Assembly (NCBI GenBank): GCA_031266915.1
Contig: JAISAB010000002.1
Location: 76,738-140,737 of the forward strand
Direction of reading: 5' to 3'
DNA length: 64,000 bases
From: Rickettsiales bacterium
GTDB taxonomy: Bacteria; Pseudomonadota; Alphaproteobacteria; Rs-D84
Positions 2,808 to 63,475 of this stretch are shown piece by piece (positions within the stretch are counted from its first letter, which is position 1; each line of letters opens with the position of its first letter). Made by a program: the position numbers and the translations under genes. The notes under the pieces are model-generated. The model saw nothing but the letters and a program-made list of their open reading frames with translations. It did not search any database and was not told the DNA's origin.

Positions 2808-3046
2808 AAGCTCAACTGACATCGAATGTATCTTTTGTGGTGCCAAAAACTCAAGATTCGTCATACTGGCCACCGGGCCCCGCGAAAAACGACTGTTTTT
2901 CATGGGTGGTCTAAGCTGGTATGACGATGTGTGTTGTTCTCGGTTTTTTTGAAAAACAATAATCAATAGTTTTTCAAAATTCAATGCCGGTATGACGGCA
3001 AGAGAAAAGAATTTCGAAAAAGGTAAATTCGATGTCAGTTGAGCCT
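2808..3046. mobile_element. MITE-like palindromic element, copy A (28-bp terminal inverted repeats gctcaactgaca..gaatg / ..attc..tgtcagttgagc)
   Basis: The termini gctcaactgacatcgaatgtatctttt (2810-) and aaaaaggtaaattcgatgtcagttgagc (-3045) are inverted copies. The internal caagattcgtcatactggc and ccggtatgacggcaag are also inverted. The element is homologous to copies at 41195-41392 and 44649-44838 and to a truncated copy near 12570-12650. Confidence 0.6.
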
Positions 3047-3797: not shown

Positions 3798-5210
3798 TTA
3801 TTTCGCGCCGTTGGATGATATGATTTGGTCCCGAGCCTGGCCCGCCGTCTTCGGGGCCGTTTTCCAGCGCATGGAATCCCAATAATCCAGGCGCTTTTTT
3901 ATTTCGCGCTCGAATCCGATTTCTTTGGGATGATAGAAAGTCTGACGCCCCATTCCATCAGGGAAACAATTTTGGCCGGAAAATCCGGAATCTGTTTCCG
4001 GTTCATAAACATACCCGGAACCGTATCCCAAATTCTTCATCATTTTTGTCGGCGCGTTCAGGATATTCTTCGGCGGCATCAGGCTGCCGGTGGCACCGGC
4101 AGCCGCATAGGCCGATTTTTGCGCTTTGTAATTTCCGGTGCTTTTCGGCGCGGTCCCAAGATAGATGACCAATTGGGTCAGTGCCAAGTCGCCCTCAGGC
4201 GACCCCATTCTTTCGTAAACCTGCCATGCGGCCAGCGCAATCTGCATGGCGCTGGGGTCGGCCAGGCCAATATCCTCCATCGCGAACCGCGTTAGGCGGC
4301 GGAACAGATACATCGGGTCCTGGCCGGACGTCATCATGCGCGCGGTCCAGTAAAGCGCGGCGTCGGTGTCGCTGGCGCGCAGGGACTTGTGAACGGCCGA
4401 AATCAGGTTGTAATGTTCGTCGCCGCTTTTGTCGGATAGCGGCGCGCGCTTTTGAATGGCGTTGTCCAATTCGTCCGGCGACAAATCGTTCTTGAAATTG
4501 GCCGACATCAGATATTCGATGGTGTTCAGCAGGAACCGGGCGTCGCCGTCGGCCATCCGGACCAAGTGAATTCGCGCCTCGGGCGTCAGCGGCAAATGTC
4601 CAACGTTCGAAGCGCAAGATTCAATTTTTGTTTTCTTTTTACCTGCGCTCTGCGCCTTGCGCTCTACGCTCTTTTCGCCTTGCTGCGCGGTGAAATAACG
4701 TTCCGCGCGTTCCATCAGATTCAGCAAATCTTCGGCGGACAGCGGGGTCAATACCCCGATATGACAGCGCGACAGCAACGCGTTGTTCAGATTAAAGCTG
4801 GGGTTTTCGGTGGTCGCGCCGATAAAGACGACCGTTCCGTCCTCTAGATACGGCAGCAGGGTGTCCTGCTGCGTCTTGTTGAATCTGTGGATTTCGTCGA
4901 TAAACAACAGCGTGTTTCGGCCGATTTGACGCCGCATCTTGGCGGCCTCTACCGCCTTTTTAATATCGGCGGTGCCGCTGAAAACCGCGCTCATCGGGAC
5001 GAAGTCCATGTCGACGGAATTCGCCAATGCGCGCGCAATCGTGGTCTTGCCGCATCCCGGCGGCCCCCACAGCAGCAGGTTCGACAGGCGTTTGTTGTCC
5101 ACCATGTGGCGCACCAGGCCGTTTTCCCCCAGCAGGGCGGCTTGGCCCACGATTTCGTCGATGGTGTTCGGACGCATGATGTCCGCAAGCGGTCGGGTCG
5201 ATGGTTCCAT
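3798..5210 (-). CDS. rarA: replication-associated recombination protein A (AAA+ ATPase RarA/MgsA)
   Basis: The N-terminus PLADIMRPNTIDEIVGQAALLGENG, Walker A GPPGCGKTT and the LLFIDEIHRFNK motif are present. The C-terminal MgsA helical domain (ALYWTARMMTSGQDP, YVYEPE) is present. There is an extra ~25-aa Lys-rich segment, discussed in findings. Confidence 0.9.
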   Translation of the reverse strand: MEPSTRPLADIMRPNTIDEIVGQAALLGENGLVRHMVDNKRLSNLLLWGPPGCGKTTIARALANSVDMDFVPMSAVFSGTADIKKAVEAAKMRRQIGRNTLLFIDEIHRFNKTQQDTLLPYLEDGTVVFIGATTENPSFNLNNALLSRCHIGVLTPLSAEDLLNLMERAERYFTAQQGEKSVERKAQSAGKKKTKIESCASNVGHLPLTPEARIHLVRMADGDARFLLNTIEYLMSANFKNDLSPDELDNAIQKRAPLSDKSGDEHYNLISAVHKSLRASDTDAALYWTARMMTSGQDPMYLFRRLTRFAMEDIGLADPSAMQIALAAWQVYERMGSPEGDLALTQLVIYLGTAPKSTGNYKAQKSAYAAAGATGSLMPPKNILNAPTKMMKNLGYGSGYVYEPETDSGFSGQNCFPDGMGRQTFYHPKEIGFEREIKKRLDYWDSMRWKTAPKTAGQARDQIISSNGAK

Positions 5211-5665: not shown

Positions 5666-7555
5666 ATGATTAAGAAAACCGTTAGGAAAGCCAGGAATTA
5701 TTTCGACCAATCGAAGACGGTCAAAAAGCTGGGCGCGGGATTTGAAAAAATTCCATCCGGTCTGGGCCGTGCGCGCAGAAAACTGGCGCGCGCGGACGCG
5801 AAAACCTGGTACGGAAAAACGGGAAAATGGACGGGCGCCGGTTTGCTGCTGGCGCTGCAGGCCGCGGCAAAAGTCGTCAAAATTATGGGCGTGGACAATC
5901 TGGTGCTGCGCGCGGTCGAGATTGAGTTCGCGACAATCAAACCCGGGAAAAATAAAAAAGGCAACGACAAGAAGTTCGCCACGTTTATAAAAAAACATCC
6001 GTGGATTCCGGCCTATCTGACAAACTATATGATTATGGCGTCATTTTTGTTCGGCGCCAACGTCGGCGGCATACGCGACGGCGCCGTCGACGGGATAAAA
6101 TCCGGCGTGGAAAGCCTGAAAGACTATTTTTCAAAGGACAAGGAAAGCGGAGAAAAAATAGACATTTCAACCATGAAAATGACCGGCGCCCAGTGGTGCA
6201 AAACGGATTTTGTGAACGCGCTGTGCGTGGCGATTCCGCTGGTGTTCGAAGAATGCTATACGACCGCAAAGCTGACATCTGAACGCGGCGGCGTATATAA
6301 CATCGGATATTGCATGACCCGTATGCCCGCGAATAAAAGCAAACCGTACGGCAAATGGCGCAAGGTCAGAAAAGGGGATACCTGTACCGAGGAACAAGCG
6401 GCCCTGTGGGCGGCCGTTTACAGTCAGAAAAATATTTTCCCGACTATCAGCGAGAAACTGACCGTCGAAGTGTCCTGCGGAATGATTTTGGCGCTGGCGG
6501 ACTTGTCTTATAATGCCGGCGCATTGGGTGTCATGATTGCGCGTTTGAACGACGGCTGGACCGAAGAACGTGTCCTGAACAGGATGTTGGAATACCGATA
6601 TGCGAAAATAAAAAACGAAAAAACAGGCAAAATGGTTCCCATAATTTTGGACGGTCTGATAGTCCGCCGCTGGTGGGATTATGCGGCCGGCCATAATAAA
6701 TTGGATTACGAAAAACTGTTGGACTGCAATCTGACGGCCGTATCGCAAATAGGCAGCGGCAACCTTTATTCGGATAAAGCAAAATACAAACCAATCATAA
6801 CCGATAAAAAAGTCGAACAGGTTTTAACCGCAAGCGTCCCGGGCAAACCAAGCGTCCGCGATATATTCAGCCGAAGCGAAACCGGCAGAAAATACATCGC
6901 GTCGATAGAAAATGCCGATGTCAGCATAGCAAAGACAGCCGAACCGGTTGAGGCAATAGAACAGGATTCGGAAAGCTATCTGGTCAATAATATCGCGTTC
7001 GAGGCGCAGACGGCTTTTGACAAAGGGCACTATAAAATCGCTGCGGACAAATTCAGGAAAATGATTGAACTGGTCCCGGACGCGTATGATTCTTACAATG
7101 ATTTGATATTCACGTTATATAAACTTGGAAATTACGACGAAGGCTTGAAATACGCCAGAATACTGATAGACCTGGGCCACGCCAATGATGTCAGCGAGGA
7201 TAAAATGTTCGGCTCGGCTTATTTTAACGCCGGTCTTTGCCGCGAAGCCAAGGGCGAATTGGAAAAGGCGAGGGCGAATTACGAGACCGCATCGCTTAGA
7301 ATGCCGAACAATATATTCGTAAAAAATGCCTTGGACAGAATTGATAAAAAGATAAAAGAACAAAACGATAAGAAACGTAAAAGCGGCAACAGCGGCAAGA
7401 AAAAAAGCGCTGGGGCGACAACGTCGGCAAAGTCTAAATTCAATCGTGCGTCTTCTAAAATAAAGAACGTGGTCGCAGAGGTCAAACCTGAAAAGGGCAG
7501 CACGTTCGATGCGACGTATTTTTTCATAAACCCCTACGATAATGGCATGGCGTGA
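5666..7555 (+). CDS. membrane-anchored GH24 (phage-type) lysozyme-like domain protein with C-terminal TPR repeats and Lys-rich tail
   Basis: The segment FEECYTTAKLTSERGGVYNIGYCMT...GDTCTEEQAALW...ILALADLSYNAGALG...GLIVRRWWDYAAG aligns motif by motif with T4/lambda lysozyme (catalytic E..D/T-EG-Y.IG.GH, TEEQA, the helix-loop FNvG, GL..RR..E). There is a hydrophobic N-proximal segment (WTGAGLLLALQAAAKVVKIMG). The C-terminal region contains TPR-like repeats (YNDLIFTLYKLGNYDEGLKYA... ELEKARANYETA). Confidence 0.65.
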   Translation: MIKKTVRKARNYFDQSKTVKKLGAGFEKIPSGLGRARRKLARADAKTWYGKTGKWTGAGLLLALQAAAKVVKIMGVDNLVLRAVEIEFATIKPGKNKKGNDKKFATFIKKHPWIPAYLTNYMIMASFLFGANVGGIRDGAVDGIKSGVESLKDYFSKDKESGEKIDISTMKMTGAQWCKTDFVNALCVAIPLVFEECYTTAKLTSERGGVYNIGYCMTRMPANKSKPYGKWRKVRKGDTCTEEQAALWAAVYSQKNIFPTISEKLTVEVSCGMILALADLSYNAGALGVMIARLNDGWTEERVLNRMLEYRYAKIKNEKTGKMVPIILDGLIVRRWWDYAAGHNKLDYEKLLDCNLTAVSQIGSGNLYSDKAKYKPIITDKKVEQVLTASVPGKPSVRDIFSRSETGRKYIASIENADVSIAKTAEPVEAIEQDSESYLVNNIAFEAQTAFDKGHYKIAADKFRKMIELVPDAYDSYNDLIFTLYKLGNYDEGLKYARILIDLGHANDVSEDKMFGSAYFNAGLCREAKGELEKARANYETASLRMPNNIFVKNALDRIDKKIKEQNDKKRKSGNSGKKKSAGATTSAKSKFNRASSKIKNVVAEVKPEKGSTFDATYFFINPYDNGMA

Positions 7556-7995
7556 TGAAAGTCGTAGCAAATTATAATGACAACCGCTGGCGGAAATACA
7601 AAATCGACTTCGCGCGCATCGCGCGCATGGCGGCCAGTTCTATGCGCAAAGATTCCGAGGTTTCGATTATTCTGACCAACGACGTCGAGGTTCGCGCCCT
7701 GAACAAGCGATACCGCGGGATTAACAAGGCGACAAATGTGCTGTCTTTTGAAACGGGCGACGACCAATTGTTGGGCGATATATTTATCTCGTTCGACACG
7801 GTTTCGCGTGAGGCCATGGGCGACGGCAAGACATTCCAAGACCACGCCGCACATATGGTCGTGCACGGCATGTTGCATTTGCTGGGGTATGACCATATGA
7901 ATGATTCTGATGCGGACACGATGGAAAATCTGGAGATTAAAATATTAAGGAAACTGGGCGTGAGTAATCCGTATGAACAAATAAAAGGAACGAGG
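7552..7995 (+). CDS. ybeY: endoribonuclease YbeY domain; no in-frame stop, so it reads through into lnt as a single 704-codon ORF 7552..9666
   Basis: The metal-binding motif HMVVHGMLHLLGYDH and the surrounding YbeY consensus are present. The expected C-terminus (~148 aa) coincides with the start of a palindromic repeat element (7986-8114), and no stop codon precedes lnt. Confidence 0.85.
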
Positions 7996-8114
7996 AACGG
8001 GAACAAGGAACCCGCCTTCGCCAAGGCTACGGCGGGCAGGCGGGAACGTGGAATGGGGCATAATACAAAGTTTCCAGTTCCTTGTTCCTGTTCCTTATTT
8101 CTGTTCCTTATTCC
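7986..8114. repeat. palindromic repeat element (RPE-like), copy 1, at the ybeY/lnt junction, in frame
   Basis: The sequence ggaacgggaacaaggaacccgccttcgccaaggctacggcgggcaggcgggaac ... gtttccagttccttgttcctgttcc has inverted arms and an inner hairpin cccgcc..ggcggg. It is about 85 percent identical to the copy at 8213-8316. Confidence 0.6.
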
Positions 8115-9666
8115 TATTTTATGCGGCGCAGTCGCTGCGCTGGGCTATGCGCCGTTTAATTTATGGTGGGCGACGTTACTCGGAATCGGCGGCATGTATT
8201 ATCTGGTGGTAAAAGGAACAGGAACAAGGAACCCGCCTTCGCCGAGGCTACGGCGGGCAGGCAGGAACTCGGCACAGTGCAAAGTTTCCCATTCCTTGTT
8301 CCCGTTCCTGTTCCCCTACCTGTTCGGCGCGGCATATGCCGTCGGGATGTTCTGGTGGGTCGTCAATTCTATATTCGTCGTCCCGGAATTGGCCGCGCAA
8401 TTCGCGATATTCGCTGCGCCGGCAATTCTGGGTATCGGGCTATTCGGCGGGCTGATATTCGAGATTCCATTCGTGGTAATTCGCTGTATGCGGCCAAATC
8501 ATGCGTATAGGGCGATTTTGTTCGCGTTGTTATGGACAGTTATCCTATGGCTGCGCGAATGGCTGTTGACAGGATTTCCATGGAATCCGGTCGCGAATAT
8601 TTCCATGCCGTTTCCAATCCTTTCCAATTCCATGTCGCTGTGGGGGGCGATGGGGCTGACGTTTGTCATCATCGGCCTGGTTGCGTCCATCGTAGAAATT
8701 ATCCGCAACGTAAAATCCAAGGGCGCATACGTTCAGTTGATTATTTTTTCGGTATTAATGTCTGTCGGAATATTTTTCGGTTATAAAAATATCCAGTCAT
8801 CTAAATTCGAAACTGATGAAAAAACACCAGTTATCCGAATAGTTCAGCCCGCGAGTTCTGCCGAAGACAAGGCCACCCATTCGCGCGAGCAGGCCATCGC
8901 CAACGCCGAGAAAAATATTCAGAATCTGATTCGTCTGGCAACTGAAAATCCGATTAAGCCGGACTTGTACGTTTTTCCGGAAACGGCGTATCCGTACATG
9001 GTTGTCGACGGCTATTTTCCTTTGGCGCAGGTATTGAAGACGCCGACGATTATGGGCGCGATGTCGTACGACGACGGCCGTTTTTACAATTCTTTGCTGA
9101 TTGCAAATCCAGCCGGCCGGATTGAAAAGATATACAGCAAGTCGCATCTGGTGCCGTTCGGCGAATACCGCCCGCTGGGCGATATTATTCCAACGCCCGG
9201 CCAGCTGACGCCTGGCGCCGGTCCTGAGATTCTGCAAGTCGCCGCTGGGGACAAGGCCGCGATTGATTTTGCGCCGGCGATTTGTTACGAGATTATTTTT
9301 TCTGATTCATTGGTGCCGGGCGGCGCGCCGGTCGAACCGGACGTCATCGTCAACATTACGAACGATACATGGTTCGGCAAGACGCCGGGCAGCTATCAGC
9401 ACTTGGACATGGTCCGCCGCTATGCGATTGAATCGGGACTGCCGGTCGTTCGTGCGAACTATTCGGGAATCAGCGCGTTCATCGATTCCGACGGCCGGGT
9501 TGCATCACGGTTGCCAATCGGCGTCGCGGGATATTTGGACGGTCGGATCGGCGGCGGCCATATGACGATTTATCGCCGGATAGGGCGCGATTTGTGGATG
9601 GTTATAATTTTGCTGTTTTCAGCAACCGCCGCAGGATGTATATCCTTATTTCAGAAGAGAGATTAG
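8053..9666 (+). CDS. lnt: apolipoprotein N-acyltransferase
   Basis: The N-terminal TM helices are present. The motif WLLTGFPWNP is present. The C-terminal CN-hydrolase domain carries the catalytic triad context (FPETAYP...; HLVPFGEYRP; ICYEIIF). The candidate start ATG at 8053 lies inside the repeat element and is in frame with ybeY. The true start and any fusion are unresolved. Confidence 0.85.
   Translation: MGHNTKFPVPCSCSLFLFLIPILCGAVAALGYAPFNLWWATLLGIGGMYYLVVKGTGTRNPPSPRLRRAGRNSAQCKVSHSLFPFLFPYLFGAAYAVGMFWWVVNSIFVVPELAAQFAIFAAPAILGIGLFGGLIFEIPFVVIRCMRPNHAYRAILFALLWTVILWLREWLLTGFPWNPVANISMPFPILSNSMSLWGAMGLTFVIIGLVASIVEIIRNVKSKGAYVQLIIFSVLMSVGIFFGYKNIQSSKFETDEKTPVIRIVQPASSAEDKATHSREQAIANAEKNIQNLIRLATENPIKPDLYVFPETAYPYMVVDGYFPLAQVLKTPTIMGAMSYDDGRFYNSLLIANPAGRIEKIYSKSHLVPFGEYRPLGDIIPTPGQLTPGAGPEILQVAAGDKAAIDFAPAICYEIIFSDSLVPGGAPVEPDVIVNITNDTWFGKTPGSYQHLDMVRRYAIESGLPVVRANYSGISAFIDSDGRVASRLPIGVAGYLDGRIGGGHMTIYRRIGRDLWMVIILLFSATAAGCISLFQKRD
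8213..8316. repeat. palindromic repeat element (RPE-like), copy 2, inserted in frame within lnt between TM1 and TM2
   Basis: The sequence is aaaaggaacaggaacaaggaacccgccttcgccgaggctacggcgggcaggcaggaac...gtttcccattccttgttcccgttcctgttcc. It encodes an extra ~30 aa (TRNPPSPRLRRAGRNSAQCKVSHS) that is absent from E. coli Lnt at this position. Confidence 0.6.
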
Positions 9667-10252: not shown

Positions 10253-10364
10253 ATTAGTAACTAGTGTATAGTGTTTAGTGCTTAGTTAATAGTGCATAGT
10301 GATTTAATTATCAGGTTATAACACTATAAACTATACACTAATCACTATGCACTACTAACTTGTT

Positions 10365-12569: not shown

Positions 12570-12650
12570 TTTTGGCTCCTAAAACTCAATATCAGGGTGA
12601 CGGCAAGCGATAAGAATGTTGAAAAGATACATTTTTGTCACTTGGGCGTT
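12570..12650. repeat. truncated copy of the MITE-like element (internal part only)
   Basis: The sequence aaaactcaatatcagggtgacggcaagcgataagaatgttgaaaagatacattttt matches the MITE internal/3' portion (..aaaacttcaagattcgtcata.. / ..tatgacggcaagagaaaagaatttcgaaaaaggtacatt..) and lies upstream of the autotransporter gene. Confidence 0.4.
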
Positions 12651-12717
12651 AGGATTTAAACCAAATATATGATATAATTCATTGAATTGGTATATATGAA
12701 AAGCAAATTAGCAGGTC

Positions 12718-15576: not shown

Positions 15577-15604
15577 TCAACAAATAACAAAAAACAGATA
15601 ACAA

Positions 15605-16261
15605 ATGATTTTGAAAAAATTATTTTCAATGAAGACGACGCGTGGGATGCTGGTGGCCGTATGTTTGCTGATGATTATCGCGCCGTGCGCGCATGCCGTT
15701 CGCGACGAGACTTTGGATTACTGGTGCCGTCCGCGCTGGGACAAATATATCGTCGATGTCAATGCGACGGACTGGGACAGGGACGCGGTGGCGTGCTATG
15801 ACAAGGACGGCAACGAAATCAGCCCGGCGAAATTATACGGCGCGCCGAAGATGTACGGCGAATACGAGGGCGGCGCGTCGAAGTCAGTCTTGAAGCTGTA
15901 TGGCCCGCAGTCTGCGCCCGCGCCCAAAAAGGCGAATGCCAAGAAAATTGCAAAACCAAAGCCGTTGAAATCAAAGTCGGTCAAATCGAAACCGGCGGCG
16001 CTCGCGCTAATAGCGAAAGCAGAATCCGTCGAAGTGCCATCGCCTGCGTCGATTGCACCAGATTGCGCACCGGCTGCAGCGGCGGCGGCAAGACCCGCGC
16101 CTGATGCCCAGGCGCAGAATATCGCAAAACTTGCGCGCGAAAAAATCGTTACAGAAGAATCGTATTGCACGCAGATTAATCCGGCCGTCAAGGGACCGTT
16201 GCCAAAGGGAATTGTCTTGATGAGGGGGCGGCCTGATTTAATGAATTGTGTAAAAAATTAG
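15605..16261 (+). CDS. hypothetical secreted Lys/Ala/Pro-rich protein
   Basis: Signal-like N-terminus (MKTTRGMLVAVCLLMIIAPCAHA), several cysteines and a KPKPLKSKSVKSKPAA low-complexity region. Confidence 0.5.
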   Translation: MILKKLFSMKTTRGMLVAVCLLMIIAPCAHAVRDETLDYWCRPRWDKYIVDVNATDWDRDAVACYDKDGNEISPAKLYGAPKMYGEYEGGASKSVLKLYGPQSAPAPKKANAKKIAKPKPLKSKSVKSKPAALALIAKAESVEVPSPASIAPDCAPAAAAAARPAPDAQAQNIAKLAREKIVTEESYCTQINPAVKGPLPKGIVLMRGRPDLMNCVKN

Positions 16262-16468: not shown

Positions 16469-17140
16469 CTAGCGCGACAAAACTAAATATTTCGGGGCCG
16501 ATGTTTCGGCCTTGTTTTTTTTCTGATAGCGCGTACGGATAATTTCCATTTTCGTTGTTTTGATTTTCAAGTCAGTGTTTTTGACCTGGGCCACAATCCA
16601 ATCGTAGTATTCATGGTGGTCAGTGCCGATAATGATTTGACCGTCCGCATCCAGCCGCGACGCCAGCAGGTTCAGAAAATCGGCGTTCAACAGCCGGCGC
16701 TTTTCATGCCTTGCCTTGGGCCATGGGTCGGGATGCAGGATATAGATAGCAGATAGGAGATACGAGATACGAGATAAGAGTTTTCGCACATCATCAGGCC
16801 AGATACAGATATTTCTATATTCTGGTTTTACTATATCTCCTATCTCTGTTATCGAAGATAACAGAGACGCCACGCCGTTGATAAAGGGCTCGGCGCCGAT
16901 AACGATAGCGTCCGGATTGCCGATTGCGACTTCGCGCAGATGTTCGCCGTTTCCAAAGCCTATTTCCAGGATTTTCTCCCCCCTCAGTGAGTGCGGCACA
17001 GGCAGCAGCACTGGCAACAGATTCTCAACCAGCCACTGCTGGCGCGCTGATAGTTTCTTTCCGTGAACCCGCCCGAATGTGCGGATGGGACCGTAATCGG
17101 CCCCCTGTTCATATTTTCTGATTCCTGATTGATTTTTCAT
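16469..17140 (-). CDS. trmB: tRNA (guanine46-N7)-methyltransferase
   Basis: The SAM-binding EIGFGNGEHL motif and the HPDPWPKARHEKRR motif (FPDPWhKarH in E. coli TrmB) are present. The gene is divergent from gltX. Confidence 0.9.
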   Translation of the reverse strand: MKNQSGIRKYEQGADYGPIRTFGRVHGKKLSARQQWLVENLLPVLLPVPHSLRGEKILEIGFGNGEHLREVAIGNPDAIVIGAEPFINGVASLLSSITEIGDIVKPEYRNICIWPDDVRKLLSRISYLLSAIYILHPDPWPKARHEKRRLLNADFLNLLASRLDADGQIIIGTDHHEYYDWIVAQVKNTDLKIKTTKMEIIRTRYQKKNKAETSAPKYLVLSR

Positions 17141-17343: not shown

Positions 17344-18930
17344 ATGGTGACGCGCTTCGCGCCAAGCCCCACGGGATTCTTTCATACCGGAAATTTATAT
17401 CCGACGATTATAGACAAAAAGCTGGCCCAGCAGTCCAGCGGCGTGTTCATTCTGCGTATCGAGGATACGGATACCAAACGCGAGGTTCCGGGCGCGGTTG
17501 ACATTATCGTGAATTCACTGGCGAAATTCGGTCTGGGCGTGGACGAGGGCATGATTGGCGACAACAAGGAAATCGGCGCATACGGCCCGTATGTGCAATC
17601 AAAACGCAAAGACATTTATCAATCTGTCGCGGCGGAGCTGATGGCGGCAGGCAAGGCGTATCCGTGTTTTCTGACCGCCGAAGAAATGGATGAAATCCGC
17701 GCCAAACAATCCGCCGGCGGATGGCGAACCGGCATATACGGCGAATGGGCGCGCGACCGTGACCTGACCGTGGAAGAAATCGCGGCGCGTCTGGACAAGG
17801 GCGAAGTTCCATCAATTCGCTTGTATTCCGCCGGCGATTGCAACAGGAAGATTTATTGCAAGGAGGCGATTCGCGGCAGCATCGCTTTTCCCGAAAGCGA
17901 CGAGGATATAGTCATTATAAAATCGAACGACGGATTGCCGACATATCATTTCGCGATGCTTTGCGACGACCATTTTATGCGCATTACGCATGTCGTGCGC
18001 GGAAACGAATATACGGCGAGTCTGCCTCTGCACGCGCAGCTGTTCAACGTGATGGGCTGGACGCCGCCGGTATTCATCCATAACGCGACGATTGATATTC
18101 TGGACGAAGAGACCGGAAACCGGCGCAAGTTGTCCAAGCGCAAGGACAGGGTGGCCAGCGTGGCGCTGCTGCTGGCCGACGGATGGCCGCCGGAATCGGT
18201 GTTGGAATATGTGTTTAATCTGGCTGTTTCCGGATATGAAGAAGCCAAAATGAAGAATCTCGCGCTGACCATTTGGGATTACCCGATAAATATTAAGAAA
18301 TTGCCGGCATCCGGGGCATTGTTCGATATGAAGAAAATGGAATGGTGGGCCAAAGAATTTATCGCGACGCTGCCGGTCGACGAACTGCTGGCCCGGGTTG
18401 TCGCGTGGGCAAACGAATACTCGCCGGACTGGGCGGCTCGGCTGACCCACCCCTCGTCCGTCGCCGCAAGCGGCGCCGGGACACTCCCCCCGCAGGGGGG
18501 GGAGACAAGCCCCCTGGAATATCTGCGCAATATTCTGGCCATCGAGCGCGACAATCCCAAACGAATCAGAAAAGATTTTATCACCTGGTCGCAGACGCTG
18601 GAAGAGGTCGCATATTTCTGGGACGACATATTCGAAAAGGCAGAAGGCAAAAGGCAGAAGGCAGAAGGCATAGAAAACGACGTATATGCACTGTTTCTGA
18701 GGAATTTCGATATAAACGACGACAAGGATACTTGGTGGAACAAGATTGTCGCCATCGCGTCACAACTTGGAATTAAAAACGGTGAGGTCGCAATGGGTCT
18801 GCGCGTGGCCCTGACGGGCCGCACCAACACGCCGGACCTGTATTCCATTATCCAGGTCATGGGCGCGGCCCGCGTCAAAAAGAGAGTGGAGAATGTTCTG
18901 AACCAAAAGGAGCAGTCATGTATCAAATAG
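17344..18930 (+). CDS. gltX: glutamyl-tRNA synthetase (ORF extends upstream to 17188; ATG at 17344 preferred)
   Basis: Class I synthetase motifs are present: RFAPSPTGFFHTGNL (HIGH region), ILRIEDTD and KLSKRKD (KMSKS). The C-terminal anticodon-binding domain is present. Confidence 0.9.
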   Translation: MVTRFAPSPTGFFHTGNLYPTIIDKKLAQQSSGVFILRIEDTDTKREVPGAVDIIVNSLAKFGLGVDEGMIGDNKEIGAYGPYVQSKRKDIYQSVAAELMAAGKAYPCFLTAEEMDEIRAKQSAGGWRTGIYGEWARDRDLTVEEIAARLDKGEVPSIRLYSAGDCNRKIYCKEAIRGSIAFPESDEDIVIIKSNDGLPTYHFAMLCDDHFMRITHVVRGNEYTASLPLHAQLFNVMGWTPPVFIHNATIDILDEETGNRRKLSKRKDRVASVALLLADGWPPESVLEYVFNLAVSGYEEAKMKNLALTIWDYPINIKKLPASGALFDMKKMEWWAKEFIATLPVDELLARVVAWANEYSPDWAARLTHPSSVAASGAGTLPPQGGETSPLEYLRNILAIERDNPKRIRKDFITWSQTLEEVAYFWDDIFEKAEGKRQKAEGIENDVYALFLRNFDINDDKDTWWNKIVAIASQLGIKNGEVAMGLRVALTGRTNTPDLYSIIQVMGAARVKKRVENVLNQKEQSCIK

Positions 18931-22381: not shown

Positions 22382-24175
22382 ATGTCAGACAACAAATATC
22401 CAATTGAACAGATTCGCCACAGCTTGGCGCATGTCTTGGCGGCAGCGGTTCAAAAATTACATCCGGATGTGAAATTCGGGGGCGGGCCCGCCATCGAGAA
22501 CGGCTTTTACTATGACTTTGACACGGAATACCGTTTTTCCGAATCGGATTTCGCGGCCATCGAAAAGGAAATGAAATCGCTGATTAAATCGGATGGCAGG
22601 TTCGTCCGCCGCGAGGTATCGTTGCCCGAAGCCAAAGAGATATTCAAAGACCAGCCATATAAAATGGAATGGCTGGGCGATATGGATGATGGAAAATGGA
22701 TAAGGGATGATGTAGATTCCATATCATCCATCATCCATCATCCATCATCCATTATATCCGTTTACACATTCCGCGACTTCACGGACCTATGCCGCGGGCC
22801 GCATGTGGAATCTTCCGCCGCGCTGCCGCGCGATTCGTTCAAGATTCGCAGCGTTGCCGGCGCGTACTGGAAGGGCGATTCGAAAAACAAAATGCTGCAG
22901 CGCATCTATGTCGACGCGTTCGCGACCGCGGTTGAGTTGGCGGAATTTCTAAAGATGCAGGAAGAGGCCGCCCAGCGCGACAACCGAAAACTGGGGCGCG
23001 AGATGGACCTGTTCCATTTCGAGCCCGACTATGCCCCGGGCGCCGTGTTCTGGCACGACAAGGGGTTCAGGATTTATCGCCGCCTGATAGACTACGTCCG
23101 CATGCGCCAGGAACAGGCGGGGTACCTGGAAATTTCGACTCCGTCAGTAATGGACCGCAGTTTGTGGGAAAAATCCGGCCACTGGGCCAAATACGGCGAG
23201 CATAATTATTCCGGCAAGACCCAGGATGGCAAGACCTTTTGCGTAAAACCGATGTCCTGTCCGGGCGGCATGCTGGTGTTCGGCCACGGCCAGGTGTCGT
23301 ACAAGGACCTGCCGATGTACGTGGCCGAATTCGGCAAGGTCAACAGGTACGAGGCGGCGGGCGGCCTGTCGGGCCTGATGCGCGTGCGCGAATTCACCCA
23401 GGACGACGCCCATATCTTCTGCACTGAAAATCAGCTGGAGGAAGAGGTCGTCAAAGTCCTGCGCTTTATCAAGGATATTTATGCCAAGTTCGGATTCGAC
23501 AAAATTTCGATGAAACTGGCGACGCGCAAGGAATCTGAATTCCGCATCGGCGACGACGCGATTTGGGACAAGGCCGAGGGCGCGCTGAAATCCGCGCTGG
23601 ATAAAAACGGAATCGAATATGAAATCGCAGAGGGCGACGCGGCGTTCTATGGCCCGAAGATTGATAACTATCTGAAAGATTCCATGGGCCGCGTATGGCA
23701 ATGCGGAACGGTTCAACTGGATATGAATCTGCCCCAGCGCTTTGATTTGTCCTATATCGGCGAAGACGGCGAAAAGCACCGCCCGATTATGCTGCACCGC
23801 GCGATGCTGGGGTCAATCGAACGCTTTATGGGAATCCTGCTGGAATCGACGGGGGGCAATCTGCCACTGTGGCTGTCGCCGGAACCGGTCGTCGTCACGC
23901 CGATTTCCGAAAAGTATCGGGAATACGCCGCGGAAGTCGTTGATATGCTGAAACACGCGGGCGTCCATGCCGCCGGCGATATGCGCGATGAAAAGGTCAA
24001 CTATAAAATCCGCGAACTGTCCCTGGCCAAGACGCCGGTTATCGCCGTTGTCGGCGAAAAGGAACGGGACGACAAGACCGTTACTCTGCGTCATTTGGGC
24101 AGCGAGAAACAGGAAACCGTTTCCCTGGACGCGTTTATAAATCAAATGGCGCAAGCCGTCCAAATGCCGGAGTAA
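22382..24175 (+). CDS. thrS: threonyl-tRNA synthetase (lacks N-terminal TGS domain; contains an in-frame palindromic insertion at ~22679-22757)
   Basis: The second N-terminal domain (HSLAHVLA), class II motifs (FRDFTDLCRGPH, GLMRVREFTQDDAHIF, GPKID, QCGTVQLD) and a C-terminal anticodon-binding domain are present. The protein begins at the position equivalent to E. coli residue ~70. Confidence 0.93.
   Translation: MSDNKYPIEQIRHSLAHVLAAAVQKLHPDVKFGGGPAIENGFYYDFDTEYRFSESDFAAIEKEMKSLIKSDGRFVRREVSLPEAKEIFKDQPYKMEWLGDMDDGKWIRDDVDSISSIIHHPSSIISVYTFRDFTDLCRGPHVESSAALPRDSFKIRSVAGAYWKGDSKNKMLQRIYVDAFATAVELAEFLKMQEEAAQRDNRKLGREMDLFHFEPDYAPGAVFWHDKGFRIYRRLIDYVRMRQEQAGYLEISTPSVMDRSLWEKSGHWAKYGEHNYSGKTQDGKTFCVKPMSCPGGMLVFGHGQVSYKDLPMYVAEFGKVNRYEAAGGLSGLMRVREFTQDDAHIFCTENQLEEEVVKVLRFIKDIYAKFGFDKISMKLATRKESEFRIGDDAIWDKAEGALKSALDKNGIEYEIAEGDAAFYGPKIDNYLKDSMGRVWQCGTVQLDMNLPQRFDLSYIGEDGEKHRPIMLHRAMLGSIERFMGILLESTGGNLPLWLSPEPVVVTPISEKYREYAAEVVDMLKHAGVHAAGDMRDEKVNYKIRELSLAKTPVIAVVGEKERDDKTVTLRHLGSEKQETVSLDAFINQMAQAVQMPE
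22679..22757. repeat. palindromic in-frame insertion inside thrS
   Basis: The arms gatatggatgatggaaaatggataagggatgatg...ccatatcatccatcatccatcatccatcatcc are complementary. It encodes ~16 extra residues (DDGKWIRDDVDSISSIIHHPSS) relative to E. coli ThrRS between the ...SIL and DMCRGPH equivalents. Confidence 0.55.
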
Positions 24176-24240
24176 ATAAATCCCCTTCGCTGGCGAAGGG
24201 GTGGATGCGAGTGAAGCGAGCAGACGGGGTAGTGGTCCTT
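24175..24240. repeat. half-copy of the ccccttcgctggcgaagggg palindromic element (full copy inside gatB)
   Basis: The sequence aaatccccttcgctggcgaaggggtg...cggggtagtgg is identical to the left arm of the gatB element at 53880-53993. Confidence 0.5.
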
Positions 24241-24341: not shown

Positions 24342-24491
24342 ATGAAGATGAAAAAATTAATCGCGGTTATGGGATTATGTTCCCTGGTATTGGCGCTGGG
24401 CGCATGCTCGAGAACATGCGAGACCGAGCCGATTGTCGAGCAGAATCACAAACTGATTGTGCCGAAGAATTTCGGCAGCCAGCCGAAATAA
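24342..24491 (+). CDS. small putative lipoprotein (49 aa)
   Basis: MKMKKLIAVMGLCSLVLALGACSR has a lipobox LALGAC. The ORF is below the ORF-track size cutoff and is preceded by the RBS aaaagg. Confidence 0.4.
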   Translation: MKMKKLIAVMGLCSLVLALGACSRTCETEPIVEQNHKLIVPKNFGSQPK

Positions 24492-24543
24492 CCATTAGTA
24501 GTTAGTAACTAGTGGCTAGTTACTAACTACTAGCTACTAATGG
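24488..24543. repeat. tagt-rich perfect-like palindrome (hairpin)
   Basis: aaccattagtagttagtaactagtggctagttactaactactagctactaatggtt; this family is also at 10262-10360, 32262-32395 and 38190-38240. Confidence 0.5.
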
Positions 24544-24574
24544 TTTTTTGTGATACAATGGGCCCGAAGAACAA

Positions 24575-25312
24575 ATGGGGGAAGCGATGAATAACAATGA
24601 ATTGGACGACAGCTTGGATTTGTTGGACCTGGAAGACGACGCGGCTTTGGACACATTGCCCGAGGCCAGTCCCTTTGCGTCCGCGCCCCGGCCCAAGAAG
24701 CCTTGGCTGCTGATGGGGGTCGGGCTGTTGGTCGTTGTGTTGGCGACGTATATCATCGTCCGCACGGTGGGCTCTGATTCTGGGTCTTCGGTGGAAATTG
24801 ATTTGGACGCGCCGGAAGTCGTGACGACGGACACGGGCGCGACGGATACTTTGGTTGTGCCTGACGCGCCGTCTGCGGCGCCATTGCCTGTTCCGGTCGC
24901 CGCGTCGCGCGCGCAGCCGATGGCACCGACGCCGGGCGTGCCTGTGCGCGAAGTGTCCGACCGCCGCGAAGTCACATTTAATCCGGACAAGCCGGCCGCC
25001 AAACCCGCACCCGCGGCGGTTGTCGCAAAACCAAAAGCACCCGCGCCAAAGCCGGCGCCGGCCGCCAAATCGGCATGGTATGCGCAATTCGGCTCGTACA
25101 GCGCGCGCGCGATGGCCGAATCCGCGCAGCGCAGGATTCAAAGCGGCCACGGCGGCCTGTTCGCCGGGAAACAGTTCGTTATTTTGGCGGCCACGCTGCC
25201 TAATGGCGCGACGACGTACAGATTGCGCGTCGGTTTTGCCTCGTCCGGCGAAGCAAACGGATTCTGCCAGAATGCGAAATCCGACGGCCTGGATTGTTAT
25301 GTTGCGAAATAA
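24575..25312 (+). CDS. SPOR domain-containing cell-division protein (single-pass, Pro/Ala-rich linker)
   Basis: There is a TM segment (WLLMGVGLLVVVLATYIIV) and an AKPAPAA-rich linker. The C-terminal WYAQFGSYSARAMAESAQRRIQ...YRLRVGFASSGEANGFCQNAK fits the SPOR peptidoglycan-binding fold. Confidence 0.7.
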   Translation: MGEAMNNNELDDSLDLLDLEDDAALDTLPEASPFASAPRPKKPWLLMGVGLLVVVLATYIIVRTVGSDSGSSVEIDLDAPEVVTTDTGATDTLVVPDAPSAAPLPVPVAASRAQPMAPTPGVPVREVSDRREVTFNPDKPAAKPAPAAVVAKPKAPAPKPAPAAKSAWYAQFGSYSARAMAESAQRRIQSGHGGLFAGKQFVILAATLPNGATTYRLRVGFASSGEANGFCQNAKSDGLDCYVAK

Positions 25313-25399
25313 AAACGTAATTCGTAAATCGTGATTCGTGAATCGCACGATACCGATTTTCGTTTTGCTTGTCTGCTAATCGAATAAGGAGTGTGTGAA

Positions 25400-28357: not shown

Positions 28358-29491
28358 ATGAGCGAAATCATATATCTGGACAGCGCGGCCAGCAGTCTGA
28401 AACCGAAATCCGTCATAGACGCCGAGGTTGATTTCCTGGCTAATCGATACGCCAACGCGGGGCGGGGAATCTGCGCACGCAGCGTCGCCGTCGACAAGAT
28501 GGTGGATTCGGCCCGCGCGCGCGTCGCAAAATTCATAAATGCGTCCACGGACAATATCGTTTTCACATCCGGCGCGACGGACGGGCTGAATCGAATCGTT
28601 CGGATGATAAGCGAATCGAATCTGTTGAACGAAAATATGGTCGCGATGGTGTCAGACCTGGACCATCACTCGGCGCGCATGCCATGGCAGCGGGCCGCCC
28701 GCCGTGGCGACGTTCGATTCGCGGTGTGCCCGCTGGATTCGGAATTCAATTTGGACATCTGCAAAATGCCGCGCGCGGACGTGTTCGTTATCACCGCCAT
28801 GTCCAACGTGCTGGGCCGGGCCCAAGACGTCAAAAAAATAATCTCCGCGGCGCGTGCGCTGAATCCCGATGTCGTGACAATCGTGGACGCGGCACAATAT
28901 ATCGCGCACCGGTCAATCGACGTTGCGGACTGGGATTGCGATTTCCTGTGTTTTTCAGCCCATAAAATCGGCGCCGACACCGGGCTGGGCGTGATGTACG
29001 TCAAAGAGCCCGAGAAATGGCGGCCCGACAAGTTCGGCGGCGGAATGGTTGCCAGGATACAGGCCGGCCCGTCTGCCACGGACGACATCGAATGGATTCT
29101 GGCGGATGGCCCCGCGCGGTTCGAGGCCGGAACGCTGCCGCTGACGCAAATCGCGGGATTGGCGCCGGCAATCGACTATTTGGAAAGTCACAGGCCGAAT
29201 CATAGGCTGATAAAATATCTGCACGGCGAATTGTCGCGGATAAAGGGACTGACGATTCTGACGAAACCTGACGACGCGCTGCTGACGTTCGTAGTCGACG
29301 GCATGCATTGTCTGGATTTTGGCGCCCTGATGGGCGCGCGCGGCGTTTGTCTGCGCGTCGGAAATATGTGCGCGACCTGGATGTATAACGTGCTGGGGTA
29401 TGCGGGCTCTATCCGCATATCGGTCGGTCCGTGGAATACGATGGACGAGATGGAGCGCGTTGCCGATATAATAAATAAGATAATAAAATGA
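28358..29491 (+). CDS. sufS: cysteine desulfurase / class V aminotransferase (SufS-like)
   Basis: The N-terminus MSEIIYLDSAASS and the PLP-lysine region FSAHKIGADTGLGVMY are present. It is followed by sufT and sufE. The ORF extends to 28235 but the ATG at 28358 matches family N-termini. Confidence 0.8.
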   Translation: MSEIIYLDSAASSLKPKSVIDAEVDFLANRYANAGRGICARSVAVDKMVDSARARVAKFINASTDNIVFTSGATDGLNRIVRMISESNLLNENMVAMVSDLDHHSARMPWQRAARRGDVRFAVCPLDSEFNLDICKMPRADVFVITAMSNVLGRAQDVKKIISAARALNPDVVTIVDAAQYIAHRSIDVADWDCDFLCFSAHKIGADTGLGVMYVKEPEKWRPDKFGGGMVARIQAGPSATDDIEWILADGPARFEAGTLPLTQIAGLAPAIDYLESHRPNHRLIKYLHGELSRIKGLTILTKPDDALLTFVVDGMHCLDFGALMGARGVCLRVGNMCATWMYNVLGYAGSIRISVGPWNTMDEMERVADIINKIIK

Positions 29492-29823
29492 ATGATACAA
29501 ATGCAATGGATTCCCGCCTGCGCGGGAATATTATCGAAGCGCTGAAAACCGTCTATGACCCGGAAATCCCCGTAAACATATGGGATTTGGGATTGGTTTA
29601 TGGCGTCGATATTGCCAACGGCCGCATAGTCGTCACGATGACTTTTACCAGTCCGACATGTCCCATGATGGAGGAATTGCTGGCCATGGTCAAGTTGGCG
29701 GCGGAATCCGCCGCGGGCGTGGGCAACGTCGACGTAGAGTTGGTCTGGGACCCGCCCTGGGACATATCCAGGATGTCCGAAGCGGCCCGGCTTGAACTGG
29801 ATTTGACAGAGCAGGGCTGGTAA
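29488..29823 (+). CDS. sufT: Fe-S assembly protein SufT (DUF59/MIP18 family)
   Basis: YDPEIPVNIWDLGLVYGVDI...VTMTFTSPTCPM matches the DUF59 signature. The start overlaps the sufS stop. Confidence 0.8.
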   Translation: MNDTNAMDSRLRGNIIEALKTVYDPEIPVNIWDLGLVYGVDIANGRIVVTMTFTSPTCPMMEELLAMVKLAAESAAGVGNVDVELVWDPPWDISRMSEAARLELDLTEQGW

Positions 29824-32261: not shown

Positions 32262-32395
32262 AATTAAAATAATCATTAGTCATTAGTTATTAGTGCTTAG
32301 TGATTAGTTGATAGTGCATAGTTAACTAGTTCACTAATAACTAAGCACTATGCACTATACACTAATGGTTATTGACTATGGACTAATGATTATTT
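32262..32395. repeat. tagt-rich imperfect palindrome (~130 bp)
   Basis: ttagtgcttagtgattagttgatagtgcatag...cactaataactaagcactatgcactatacactaatgg has complementary arms. Confidence 0.45.
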
Positions 32396-38111: not shown

Positions 38112-38538
38112 ACTTTTGTTTAGTTGGCTGGACGTTATAACCGAAAACAAACCCGCAGGCGCAAAGACTTGCTGGTTTGTTTTGATTAGGTTCAGGGACA
38201 GCGTATAGTCAATAGTCGTTAGTCTATAGTTAGCAGTTCAAATTGTCGCCGTCGCGAAACGATGCGGACAAAACCGCATGCTGCGGCGTCAAACTGTCTT
38301 GCCGTATTAATATATGCCTTCGCCAGTTTTCCTGACATCATGCGATTTTCTCTCGCATCGTGCGTCTGAATTTAATGAGCCCTGACCCTAGTAAAACAGT
38401 TGATATAAGACAATGCACCAATCATTATCGATTATTGACCAACGACTATTGACAATTTTCTGGCATTTTATGAATCACGGTTTCCCCAAATCCAACAAAC
38501 GTTTTATTTATACCTGGTTTTGTGATACAATTTATACT

Positions 38539-41145: not shown

Positions 41146-41194
41146 GTATTTCAGGTCATTGTTAATGAATTTAAGCTGAAATTATATGCCCTTG

Positions 41195-41392
41195 AAAACA
41201 ATCGTTCAACCGACAGGAATGTACCTTTATCGACATTCTTTTCACTTGCCGTCACCCCAGCCACCGCGGGGGTCCAATGTGTTTATCATACATGTATTGT
41301 TCACAGCTTGAATACAATGGATGCCGTCCTGCGACGTCATGACGAGTCTTGAGTTTTTGAGGCCAAAAAGGTACATTCCTGTCAGTTGAGCT
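41195..41392. mobile_element. MITE-like palindromic element, copy B (plus a solo terminal repeat at 41404-41422)
   Basis: The termini are cgttcaaccgacaggaatgtaccttt ... aaaaaggtacattcctgtcagttgagc. The interior is the reverse complement of the copy C interior (ggtccaatgtgtttatcata..gttcacagcttgaatacaatggat). It is followed by ccattcctgtcagctgaac. Confidence 0.6.
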
Positions 41393-41423
41393 ATTATATT
41401 AAAGCCATTCCTGTCAGCTGAAC

Positions 41424-44648: not shown

Positions 44649-44838
44649 GCTCAACTGACAGGAATGCACCTTTTTTGCCCCAAAACTTCAAGATTCGTCA
44701 TACCGGCGCCAGCTGGTATCCATTGTATTCAAGCTGTGAACAATACCCGTATGATAAACACATTGGACCCCGTCCTGCGACGGGGTGACGCCAAGTGAGA
44801 AGAATATCGAAAAAGGTACATTCCTATCGGTTGAGCGA
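44649..44838. mobile_element. MITE-like palindromic element, copy C
   Basis: The termini are gctcaactgacaggaatgcaccttttttg ... aaaaaggtacattcctatcggttgagc. The interior has caagattcgtcataccgg and the same sequence as the copy B interior in inverted orientation. Confidence 0.6.
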
Positions 44839-44901
44839 AAATAAATATAAGTCGATTTCGAACTTTTTTAATGCGAATTTGGATTTAGTATTATAGAATA
44901 T

Positions 44902-53083: not shown

Positions 53084-53529
53084 GTTATCCTCCTGTGGAG
53101 GAGTACCGGCGCATCCGGGTAGGTGGTTAGAGAATTAATAAATAATAAAGAATAGAGAATAAAGAATAAATAATCAGAGCTTAATCTAAAAGTCTCGAAC
53201 CACCCCGTCATGCTTCGCATGCCACCCCTCCGCCGGATGTGAACAGTTCTCCTCCTGTGTAGGGGTACGTTGCCGCATAGCAAGAATTTGCCGCAGGTCA
53301 GCTTATCTGCCATTATCTTTTCTTCCGGTAAATCTGTTTTGTTTTTGCGCACGAATTTGCCGTTGGCCGGTTATGGGCGGATATTTTTCTGAAACTTTGT
53401 TCTGTGGCAATTCCTGTCCTGTGGGCTGCGTGAAGTCGAATCGGCATATTCCTGTTATTTCATAAGTCGCGTCTTTGATGACTTTTACTGCTTTCATATT
53501 TTTTCCTTTAAGGTTCATTCTCTCTCGCG

Positions 53530-55751: not shown

Positions 55752-55865
55752 GTAAATTCCCCTCCTGCGGAGGGGTGATTTTTTGCATATAATGCAAAAA
55801 ATCGGGGAGGGTTCCGTCCGCGCCGCGCGAAGCGCAAATCCCTGTGTCGCTTGGTGGACAGTGTT

Positions 55866-57727: not shown

Positions 57728-58177
57728 ATGGTTTTGACAGATTTCAAGAATTTTCCGCATGTTGGAAAGATTTTGGGAATAGATTGGGGCGCGCGGCGCA
57801 TCGGGCTGGCGATTTCCGACGCGGGTCGGGAATTTTTCTTTGTCCGTCCGATAATGGAAAATAAACCGCGGCCGGCAAACGCGGCGGCCGATGTCGCCGC
57901 CGTGGCCCGGGCAGAGGGGGTCGCGGGCATTGTCGTCGGACTGCCGCTGCGCGGGGACGGCTGCGAATCTGATACTACGCGGGCCGTGCGCCGGTTCGCC
58001 GATGAGTTGGCGTCCATAATCGATTTGCCGATTGTTTTCATCAACGAAAACCTGACCAGCGTCGAGGCCCAAGAAAGGCAGAAGGCAAAAGGCAAAAGGC
58101 AGAAGTATATCGATTCCGAGAGTGCAAGGGTTATACTGGAAAACGCCGCGGCGATGATTCGTCGTAGTGCGAAATAA
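57728..58177 (+). CDS. ruvX: YqgF/RuvC-like putative pre-16S rRNA nuclease
   Basis: ILGIDWGARRIGLAISD, VVGLPL and ENLTSVEA motifs are present. Confidence 0.85.
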   Translation: MVLTDFKNFPHVGKILGIDWGARRIGLAISDAGREFFFVRPIMENKPRPANAAADVAAVARAEGVAGIVVGLPLRGDGCESDTTRAVRRFADELASIIDLPIVFINENLTSVEAQERQKAKGKRQKYIDSESARVILENAAAMIRRSAK

Positions 58178-61951: not shown

Positions 61952-61979
61952 TCCTGATTCCTAATTTCTGATTTCTTTA

Positions 61980-63320: not shown

Positions 63321-63475
63321 AAACGCAAATTAGCTGGCAATTAACAGAGCACAGATAACGGTTAATGGATGATGTATGAGGGATAATTTGAGTATTAAAG
63401 CTGAATAAATCTTAAATCATAAATCTTCAATCTTAAATAAAAGAAACTGCGTGTTAAGCATAATAGCTCTTTTTC

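Follow-up and report, generated by a model that had tools for sequence, protein, structure and literature searches.

Repeats of several unrelated sequence classes lie in frame within conserved genes of an uncultured gut alphaproteobacterium

We analyzed a 64-kb stretch of DNA (hereafter "the window", meaning this whole stretch) from an uncultured animal-gut alphaproteobacterium with a GC content of ~50%, in which several conserved genes, such as thrS, gatB, lnt and rarA, carry repeat-derived segments that lengthen the encoded protein and leave its reading frame intact. These segments are probably selfish repeats akin to repetitive extragenic palindromic (REP) sequences and Rickettsia palindromic elements (RPEs), which belong to several unrelated classes, have been filtered by selection, and now lie in frame within conserved genes. 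The classes are: (a) tandem arrays of 7-nucleotide (nt) units, here termed heptamers, often arranged as inverted arms; (b) a double-hairpin unit rich in GC; and (c) a hairpin of 30 nt that is nested in some of the arrays. The initial annotation of this DNA had assigned the palindromic segments to one family; we rejected this view, as there are at least three classes and they share no sequence. Its comparison with RPEs, which tolerate insertion into coding sequence, has held up: repeat-derived residues do occur in conserved genes, the frame is intact, and close orthologs lack them. The analogy applies at the level of the phenomenon, because the class (b) unit is dispersed, variably present, and found in frame in many housekeeping genes.

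The closest relatives of the source organism are alphaproteobacterial metagenome-assembled genomes (MAGs) from animal guts (termite gut, rumen, human and chicken gut), among them Candidatus Enterousia, which is classified as Alphaproteobacteria incertae sedis. Comparison of the window with a syntenic relative, L121, revealed that every large in-frame insertion or deletion found between the two coincides with a repeat. Folding stabilities were calculated for single-stranded DNA and expressed as z-scores against 200 shuffled sequences.

A heptamer palindrome in the thrS gene

The gene for threonyl-tRNA synthetase (ThrRS) carries the following element:

22382-24175, + strand: thrS
22682-22752, + strand: heptamer palindrome in thrS, 71 nt, imperfect, encoding ...MDDGKWIRDDVDSISSIIHHPSSI...; the replaced stretch is 22676-22756

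The palindrome has a degenerate left arm (22682-22716), built as a (GGATGAT)n array, and a perfect right arm (22718-22752), a tandem array of the form (ATCATCC)4.3; the two are 83% complementary and separated by a gap of 1 nt. The segment 22679-22757 folds with -20.8 kcal/mol (z = -4.1), and none of the 200 shuffles was equally stable. The ThrRS of the window comprises 597 amino acids (aa), compared to 577-587 aa in ten orthologs (577-582 aa in nine of them) that are 82-91% identical to it, and in the protein alignment it is separated from all ten by a single clean insertion of 17 residues, in good agreement with the ~16 extra aa proposed in the initial annotation. At the DNA level, 81 nt in the window (22676-22756) correspond to 30 nt in two orthologs, which gives a net gain of 51 nt. 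The insert aligns at approximately residues 159-172 of E. coli ThrRS (1qf6), N-terminal to the catalytic core, within a region that we take to be the N2 editing domain.

Since 7 and 3 have no common factor, a heptamer array yields one and the same cyclic heptapeptide whichever of its three frames is read. Thus (ATCATCC)n reads IIHHPSS in every frame, and its complement (GGATGAT)n contains TGA in every frame. Compared with a perfect complement of the right arm, the left arm of the thrS palindrome is changed at six positions, and two of these six changes remove an in-frame TGA, converting MDDG*WMMDD into MDDGKWIRDD. The loss of the expected stop codon suggests that the insert is translated and that one arm has been repaired by selection.

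Two further features of this locus can be mentioned. ThrRS starts at the equivalent of residue 67 of the E. coli protein; the first ~60 N-terminal residues, presumably the TGS domain, are absent, which is common to all close orthologs (577-580 aa). Downstream (3') of thrS, the signal peptide of a small conserved lipoprotein is encoded by DNA with 7-nt periodicity (TTTGCTC TTTGCTC TTTGTTA ...; ~11880-11915 in L121 and ~3090-3130 in L003).

The GC-rich double-hairpin unit

The second class comprises units of 40-70 nt, each composed of hairpin 1 (CCCCTTCGC-TG-GCGAAGGGG), the dinucleotide TG, hairpin 2, and CGGGGTAGTGG; the canonical tail of the unit is GGGGTAGTGG. The units occur singly or as inverted dimers of ~110 nt. 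The window contains the following examples:

53530-55131, - strand: gatB
53880-53993, no strand assigned: gatB element, 114-nt palindrome, inverted dimer of the GC-rich unit, the - strand frame reading NYSPSLAKGWPAKPDGVVENDSATTTPPCGHPFASEGDLPP
53883-53924, + strand: unit A of the gatB element
53940-53987, - strand: unit B of the gatB element
24182-24235, + strand: single unit 6 nt past the thrS stop codon, with 5' flank AAAT, hairpin 1 CCCCTTCGCTGGCGAAGGGG, TG, hairpin 2, and CGGGGTAGTGG
18445-18504, - strand: variant single unit in gltX, in reverse orientation and in frame, adding 20 aa, THPSSVAASGAGTLPPQGGE
55759-55813, + strand: variant unit directly 3' of tRNA-Phe, intergenic, with hairpin 1 CCCCTCCTGCGGAGGGG, TG, an AT-rich hairpin 2, and CGGGGAGGGTT

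The gatB palindrome folds with -48.3 kcal/mol (z = -10.5), and its halves carry different second hairpins. It had been proposed to add about 35 aa to GatB. The 114-nt element is well supported by our analysis, and the gain is smaller: GatB comprises 533 aa in the window, compared to 505-508 aa in orthologs, and the net difference due to the element amounts to 26 and not 35 aa, since a variable linker located just before the C-terminal YqeY-like domain was there already and has largely been replaced by the element. The "half-copy" noted after thrS was confirmed as one single unit, which contains an exact 22-mer characteristic of the class, present in three copies in the window against zero expected. 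The unit in gltX and the one after tRNA-Phe, the fifth in the window, are additions to the initial annotation.

The exact 22-mer has at least 173 matches in the window and 117 other stretches from approximately 36 related MAGs, with at least 48 copies in one MAG from termite gut. Among the 173 listed copies, 149 are located outside long open reading frames (ORFs) and 24 within them. Hosts of in-frame units in the relatives include PriA, MutS, PheT, a UvrD-like helicase, PolA (DNA polymerase I), XseA, and RlmN, as well as FtsW/RodA, a MiaB-like enzyme, and FBA (class II aldolase), and in these proteins Pfam domains were matched on both sides of the insert. The encoded peptides are recurrent (PFAGEGV...GRGSG, SPSLAKGW, HPFASEGE, TPSPAKG), and the in-frame units favor frames 1 and 2 of either strand, partly because the remaining forward frame has stop codons.

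Analysis of 235 units revealed that the hairpin structure of class (b) is maintained. Variants of hairpin 1 retain pairing through compensatory changes on both sides. Hairpin 2 is hypervariable: we counted 138 distinct versions, and 87% of the second hairpins fold with at least 4 base pairs, with a mean of -4.4 kcal/mol compared to -1.2 kcal/mol for shuffled sequences, GNA triloops being dominant. These values come from folding of individual sequences, which we used instead of RNAalifold; on 73 aligned units the latter recovered only four pairs, because variation in length shifts the hairpins out of register. Mini-hairpins of the d(GCGNAGC) type are unusually stable in DNA, which hints at a single-stranded DNA form of the unit.

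The 5' flank of the units is conserved (AAA[T/G]T). In other subfamilies the GTAG of the canonical tail is replaced by GTGG at the same place (tails GGGGTGGTTG or GGGGTGGTTA), and inverted dimers were also found in L009, L025, L040, L042, L045, and L047. Individual sites vary between genomes. Immediately after the thrS stop codon, there is one unit in the window, a variant dimer in both L121 and L122, and none in L003, where the site is empty; the same linker of gatB has independently received a variant dimer, only a few codons away, in another lineage (P0130, L124). The initial annotation considered the palindromes to be mobile or formerly mobile, and for the gatB-type unit mobility is well supported.

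The exact 22-mer was also detected in L009, L085, L101, L039, L052, L096, and L104, from five MAGs labeled as members of other phyla (Deferribacteraceae, Spirochaetia, Schleiferiaceae, Acutalibacteraceae, and Muribaculaceae), which may reflect mis-binned contigs or horizontal spread. At the protein level, when 1.84 billion representative proteins were searched by phmmer with the 41-aa insert of gatB, a query too short to provide a census, there were three matches: two unrelated repeat proteins and one spurious ORF that spans tandem copies of a variant unit. The predicted 752-aa protein P0361 is a read-through of 11 tandem ~201-nt copies, each composed of a variant unit and a constant spacer, and is probably a spurious ORF. 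A search of viral contigs yielded a single match, which was uninformative.

Composite elements in lnt and the nested 30-nt hairpin

The presence of two copies of a different element in lnt, as proposed in the initial annotation, was confirmed:

7983-8116, + strand: lnt-type composite element, copy 1, in the YbeY-Lnt linker, with GGAACNN heptamer arms and the 30-nt hairpin CCGCCTTCGCCAAGGCTACGGCGGGCAGGC at 8012-8041 within the left arm
8211-8320, + strand: lnt-type composite element, copy 2, in the Lnt N-terminal domain, with the 30-nt hairpin at 8233-8262

Copy 1 adds 30 aa and copy 2 approximately 17 aa (z = -6.6 and -5.1, respectively). The composite was evidently copied as a whole, because the two copies share a core that is 87% identical and the arms too. 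The host ORF (7552-9666, + strand) encodes a YbeY-Lnt fusion of 704 aa, compared to 653 aa in L121 (1144-3105), which is devoid of the elements; the fusion is a feature of the lineage and not a read-through caused by repeats, because this element-free relative also has it.

The 30-nt hairpin inside the left arm, CCGCCTTCGCCRAGGCTACGGCGGGCAGGC, has at least 120 exact matches in unrelated metagenome contigs of the Joint Genome Institute (L126-L245), whose GC content ranges from 32% to 74%. Of 117 copies, 114 have a C as the preceding base. In 12 of the 117 the 7-nt stretches that flank the hairpin are repeats of one another, compared to 0.6 expected, and there too the hairpin therefore sits within a heptamer array. 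We tried the hypothesis that arrays are built by 7-bp target duplication of the 30-mer and rejected it as at best a partial explanation, given that only these 12 copies have 7-nt flanking repeats. The 30-mer may resemble the small dispersed repeats of Nostoc, which Elhai et al. (2008) reportedly described as mobile and imperfect palindromes of 21-27 nt that lie nested within other repeats.

Heptamer arrays in the window and in related genomes

The arms of the thrS and lnt elements are part of a general excess of period-7 repeats. There are 12 period-7 runs in the window, compared to 0.1 in shuffled sequences and at most three at other periods, except 14; in 904 kb from the relatives there are 78, against 2-19 at other periods. 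Of 89 arrays, 19 (about a fifth) are located in long ORFs, and for 36 an inverted partner lies no more than 250 nt away. In the window, the genes with coding arrays are thrS, the YbeY-Lnt ORF, gltX, rarA, trmB, and ruvX, those in gltX, ruvX, and trmB being absent from the initial annotation. Besides thrS and lnt, the following arrays were identified:

4643-4672, - strand: (AGAGCGC)x4 in the variable Lys-rich linker of rarA, non-palindromic
18637-18670, + strand: (AAGGCAG)x5 in gltX, approximately 4 aa more than in a relative
58074-58105, + strand: (AAAGGCA)x4.6 near the C-terminus of ruvX (gene 57728-58177)
16744-16780, - strand: array in trmB (AGATACG on the + strand)
32267-32395, no strand assigned: the largest intergenic heptamer hairpin, with TAGTNAT arms
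1935-2045, 10255-10360, and 24486-24549: similar intergenic heptamer hairpins
575-605, 15579-15606, 25312-25345, 38205-38230, 53137-53174, 61950-61973, and 63367-63438: one-armed arrays

The case of rarA departs from the initial annotation, which described a palindromic element encoding an extra Lys-rich segment. The extra residues are real: close orthologs have a Lys-rich linker of 13-17 aa, a distant ortholog has none, and the window protein exceeds the close ones by approximately 15 residues. The segment forms no significant palindrome (z = -0.57, with 58 of 200 shuffles folding as well) and is instead marked by the AGAGCGC array. In addition, rarA is presumably a counterexample to the proposal that all hosts of such segments are essential genes.

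The stop codons in the arrays are consistent with the selection proposed for thrS. Heptamers found in coding DNA (AAGGCAG, AGGAACG, AGAGCGC, AGATACG) are free of stop codons on both strands, and those confined to intergenic DNA (TAGTCAT, ACAGATA, AAAGAAT) contain stops. The same few heptamers (GGATGAT, AAGGCAG, TAGTCAT, AAAGAAT, GGAACAG) turn up repeatedly, both at unrelated loci and in different genomes. Two arrangements were observed in relatives in which the arms enclose host sequence. In MurG of L031, from termite gut, GGATGAT/ATCATCC arms encoding MDDGRRMTDDG and SSIIHHPSSII lie on either side of 16 residues that seem native and contain the GxPVR motif, and in a RluD-like gene of L065, AAGGCAG/CTGCCTT arms are located around a native S4 segment.

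Origin of the repeats and their maintenance in genes

On the reading we favor, repeats would spread or arise throughout the genome, mainly in intergenic DNA, and copies in essential genes would persist only when they add a length divisible by three, no stop falls in the host frame, and the site is a tolerant loop or linker. The surviving copies would be translated as extra peptide loops. The repeats would be selfish, class (b) would move as single-stranded DNA by means of a tyrosine transposase (Y1 or RAYT-like, i.e. similar to REP-associated tyrosine transposases), and the thrS palindrome would derive from a pre-formed element rather than from changes made in place.

For the heptamer palindromes there is a competing explanation, namely that those of thrS and of the lnt arms were formed in place: slippage would expand a 7-nt motif, template switching of the quasipalindrome type would copy it in inverted orientation, and within genes only stop-free changes in multiples of three would survive. 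We regard this as possible, though on balance somewhat doubtful. Heptameric repeats are over-represented in bacteria, with slippage proposed as the cause and inverted pairs known in Xanthomonas (PMC4692102). The homologous site of trmB in L121 holds a different heptamer array (AGTCGAA) of the same length, so that different heptamers occupy this site in two genomes with no change in length; the arms in MurG of L031 and in the RluD-like gene of L065 enclose native segments; many arrays are one-armed; and a sequence close to the heptamer, ATATGATG, is already present at the orthologous, i.e. ancestral or empty, thrS site. In-place formation has more difficulty with the recurrence of the same few heptamers at unrelated loci and in different genomes, with the lnt copies, whose shared core and arms speak for copying of the whole, and with the frequency of inverted partners, which would need a dedicated mechanism.

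Several of these observations weigh against insertion of heptamer palindromes as pre-formed elements, and the facts from trmB, MurG, the RluD-like gene, and the orthologous thrS site fit better with their formation in place. Accordingly, mobility is only weakly supported for the thrS palindrome, which could have arisen where it now stands. Other results likewise weigh against the favored reading. Around the GC-rich units there is no flanking direct repeat or target-site duplication above chance, and classical transposition in the manner of MITEs (transposable elements of the miniature inverted-repeat type) is therefore unsupported. A tblastn search of the window with E. coli RayT found no RAYT-like gene (E-values of 5 or worse), and among the genome fragments searched there was no RAYT gene flanked by GC-rich units, nor could a mobilizing enzyme be linked to any of the classes. 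In L036 (Nl494_bin11), the most repeat-rich relative, positions 6017-6514 encode a 165-aa Y1_Tnp protein (PF01797; 25.2 bits against a cut-off of 23), and the palindromes that flank this gene belong to a different family than the GC-rich units. An AlphaFold2 model of ThrRS, calculated from an 11-sequence alignment, had a mean pLDDT (predicted local distance difference test) of 51.7, with 33-46 in the insert, and did not yield a surface placement for it. Translation of the inserts is deduced from the DNA rather than observed, and for the host genome itself the copies were counted in 64 kb of sequence.

The palindromes flanking the Y1_Tnp gene of L036 are a finding in their own right: they are inverted copies (GGGG[T/C]GGGGTC..GACCCC.CCCC GAACATTTTATCA), and the arrangement looks like a REPtron or TIRtron.

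A broader speculation, which we consider unlikely but worth stating, is that heptamer arrays and the tiny hairpins nested in them are two faces of one uncharacterized DNA-level mechanism that operates across bacterial phyla and here also acts within genes, where it would produce inverted 7-nt arrays inside or around coding segments and thereby keep seeding peptide loops in essential proteins. Such a mechanism would have a cross-phylum reach, because the 30-mer recurs exactly in at least 120 metagenome contigs of widely different composition (32-74% GC). If the link between the arrays and the cross-phylum 30-nt hairpin is true, the unexplained excess of heptamers in bacteria becomes directly testable.

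It is quite improbable that the inserts are adaptive modules, kept by positive selection for a function of the hairpin in mRNA (in stability, pausing, or regulation) or of the new peptide. Such a role would suit the compensatory changes that maintain the hairpins of the unit, the frequent location of units just past stop codons, a position in which REPs are believed to work at the RNA level (PMC3733652), and the presence of elements in the same gatB linker in two lineages. Against it, the insertions are specific to a lineage or a genome and missing from orthologs at 82-91% identity, one and the same element is found in many proteins of unrelated function, in both orientations and in different frames, and the inserts fall in variable linkers. 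A search of Rfam gave no family match, the only hits being to eukaryotic miRNAs and generic hairpins far below the threshold.

Finally, that the palindromes are artefacts of MAG assembly or binning, or that bypassing or splicing keeps the inserts out of the mature protein, is scarcely credible: the source is indeed a MAG, and palindromes are known to arise in some amplification and assembly methods, but an independent Logan assembly of run SRR14710922 matches 3,827 nt around thrS exactly (the sequence is thus not a quirk of one assembler), related elements occur in approximately 36 independent MAGs, all inserts preserve the frame and are stop-free, and the left arm of the thrS palindrome has lost its TGA, which is expected only if it is translated.

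Other repeats in the window

Two more observations concern repeats outside the classes described above. A further family of ~100-nt repeats (...GGACCCCGTCCTGCGACGGGGTGACGGCAAGTGAAAAGAAT.TCGAAAAAGGTACATTCCTGTCAGTTGAGC) has five intergenic copies, located at 41185-41410, 44745-44855, 12580-12665, and 2975-3045, two of which form an inverted pair with 38-nt arms. The hairpin ATTCCCGCCTGCGCGGGAAT at 29510-29529 occupies the first codons of an FeS-assembly gene (29488-29823), the product of which has an N-terminus ~8 aa longer than that of its L121 counterpart. A search of the literature by sequence returned no match for the repeats.

Relation to known systems

The classic example of in-frame palindromes is provided by the RPEs of Rickettsia (PMC10969869). 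The elements described here are similar to RPEs (Ogata et al. 2000, 2002, as reported in PMC10969869 and PMC3733652) in that they are small dispersed palindromes found in frame in unrelated housekeeping genes, add short peptides to proteins that stay intact, have intergenic copies too, and form several families per genome. They differ in several respects. Their host is a lineage of gut MAGs (Alphaproteobacteria incertae sedis) rather than Rickettsia. They are GC-rich and unrelated in sequence to RPEs, a judgment made without direct alignment to an RPE consensus, and they measure 40-70 nt, or ~110 nt as dimers, compared to ~150 bp. They do not belong to the CGTC-tagged RPE family, their canonical tail being GGGGTAGTGG, and a counterpart of the tandem-heptamer class is not known among RPEs.

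With REPs and their paired forms (REP doublets forming hairpins, REPINs; PMC3733652; Bertels and Rainey 2011, PMC3116915) the GC-rich unit shares the short GC-rich stem-loops, high copy number, mostly extragenic location, proximity to 3' ends of ORFs, and frequent inverted dimers. A minority of REPs is intragenic: GTAG- and CGTC-tagged REPs are found inside genes of several species, often those for replication and repair, with dimers that encode 20-30 aa (Di Nocera et al. 2013, PMC3733652). In the canonical units a GTAG is found just 3' of the second hairpin, and in the other subfamilies GTGG takes its place. Unlike REPs, the unit has two hairpins, one conserved and one hypervariable (138 variants among 235 copies), the halves of its dimers carry different second hairpins, and no RAYT gene flanked by units was found in the fragments searched. 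It differs from MITEs in having a conserved 5' AAA[T/G]T in place of a target-site duplication.

The heptamer arrays resemble the heptameric repeats of other bacteria, such as the short tandemly repeated repetitive (STRR) sequences of cyanobacteria and the GGGAATC repeats of Xanthomonas and Nostoc (PMC4692102), in the strong and specific over-representation of tandem 7-nt units, with several types per genome, some of them in inverted pairs able to form stem-loops. Those repeats are reported as intergenic, or mostly so (PMC4692102), whereas here 19 of the 89 arrays are in long ORFs and in frame, and the paired arms either form long intragenic palindromes or flank native coding segments. Coding palindromes in mitochondria of Nematomorpha (PMC6649704) are also long inverted repeats within protein genes, both arms being translated, but they are mitochondrial and eukaryotic, consist of perfect repeats of up to 284 bp, are not built from heptamers, and form no dispersed multi-copy family.

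In-frame palindromes were first seen as a peculiarity of Rickettsia and later reported sporadically for REPs; here an uncultured lineage of gut alphaproteobacteria has reached the same outcome independently, through two or more unrelated types of repeat at once. Heptamer arrays are unusually easy raw material for protein loops, because every frame gives the same heptapeptide, and the thrS copy, with one arm perfect and the other purged of its stop codon, provides a compact record of selection on selfish DNA in an essential gene. In-frame palindromes as such are already known from the systems discussed above; novel here are the lineage and the sequence families, a two-hairpin unit whose second hairpin is hypervariable, and the intragenic palindromes built from heptamers.

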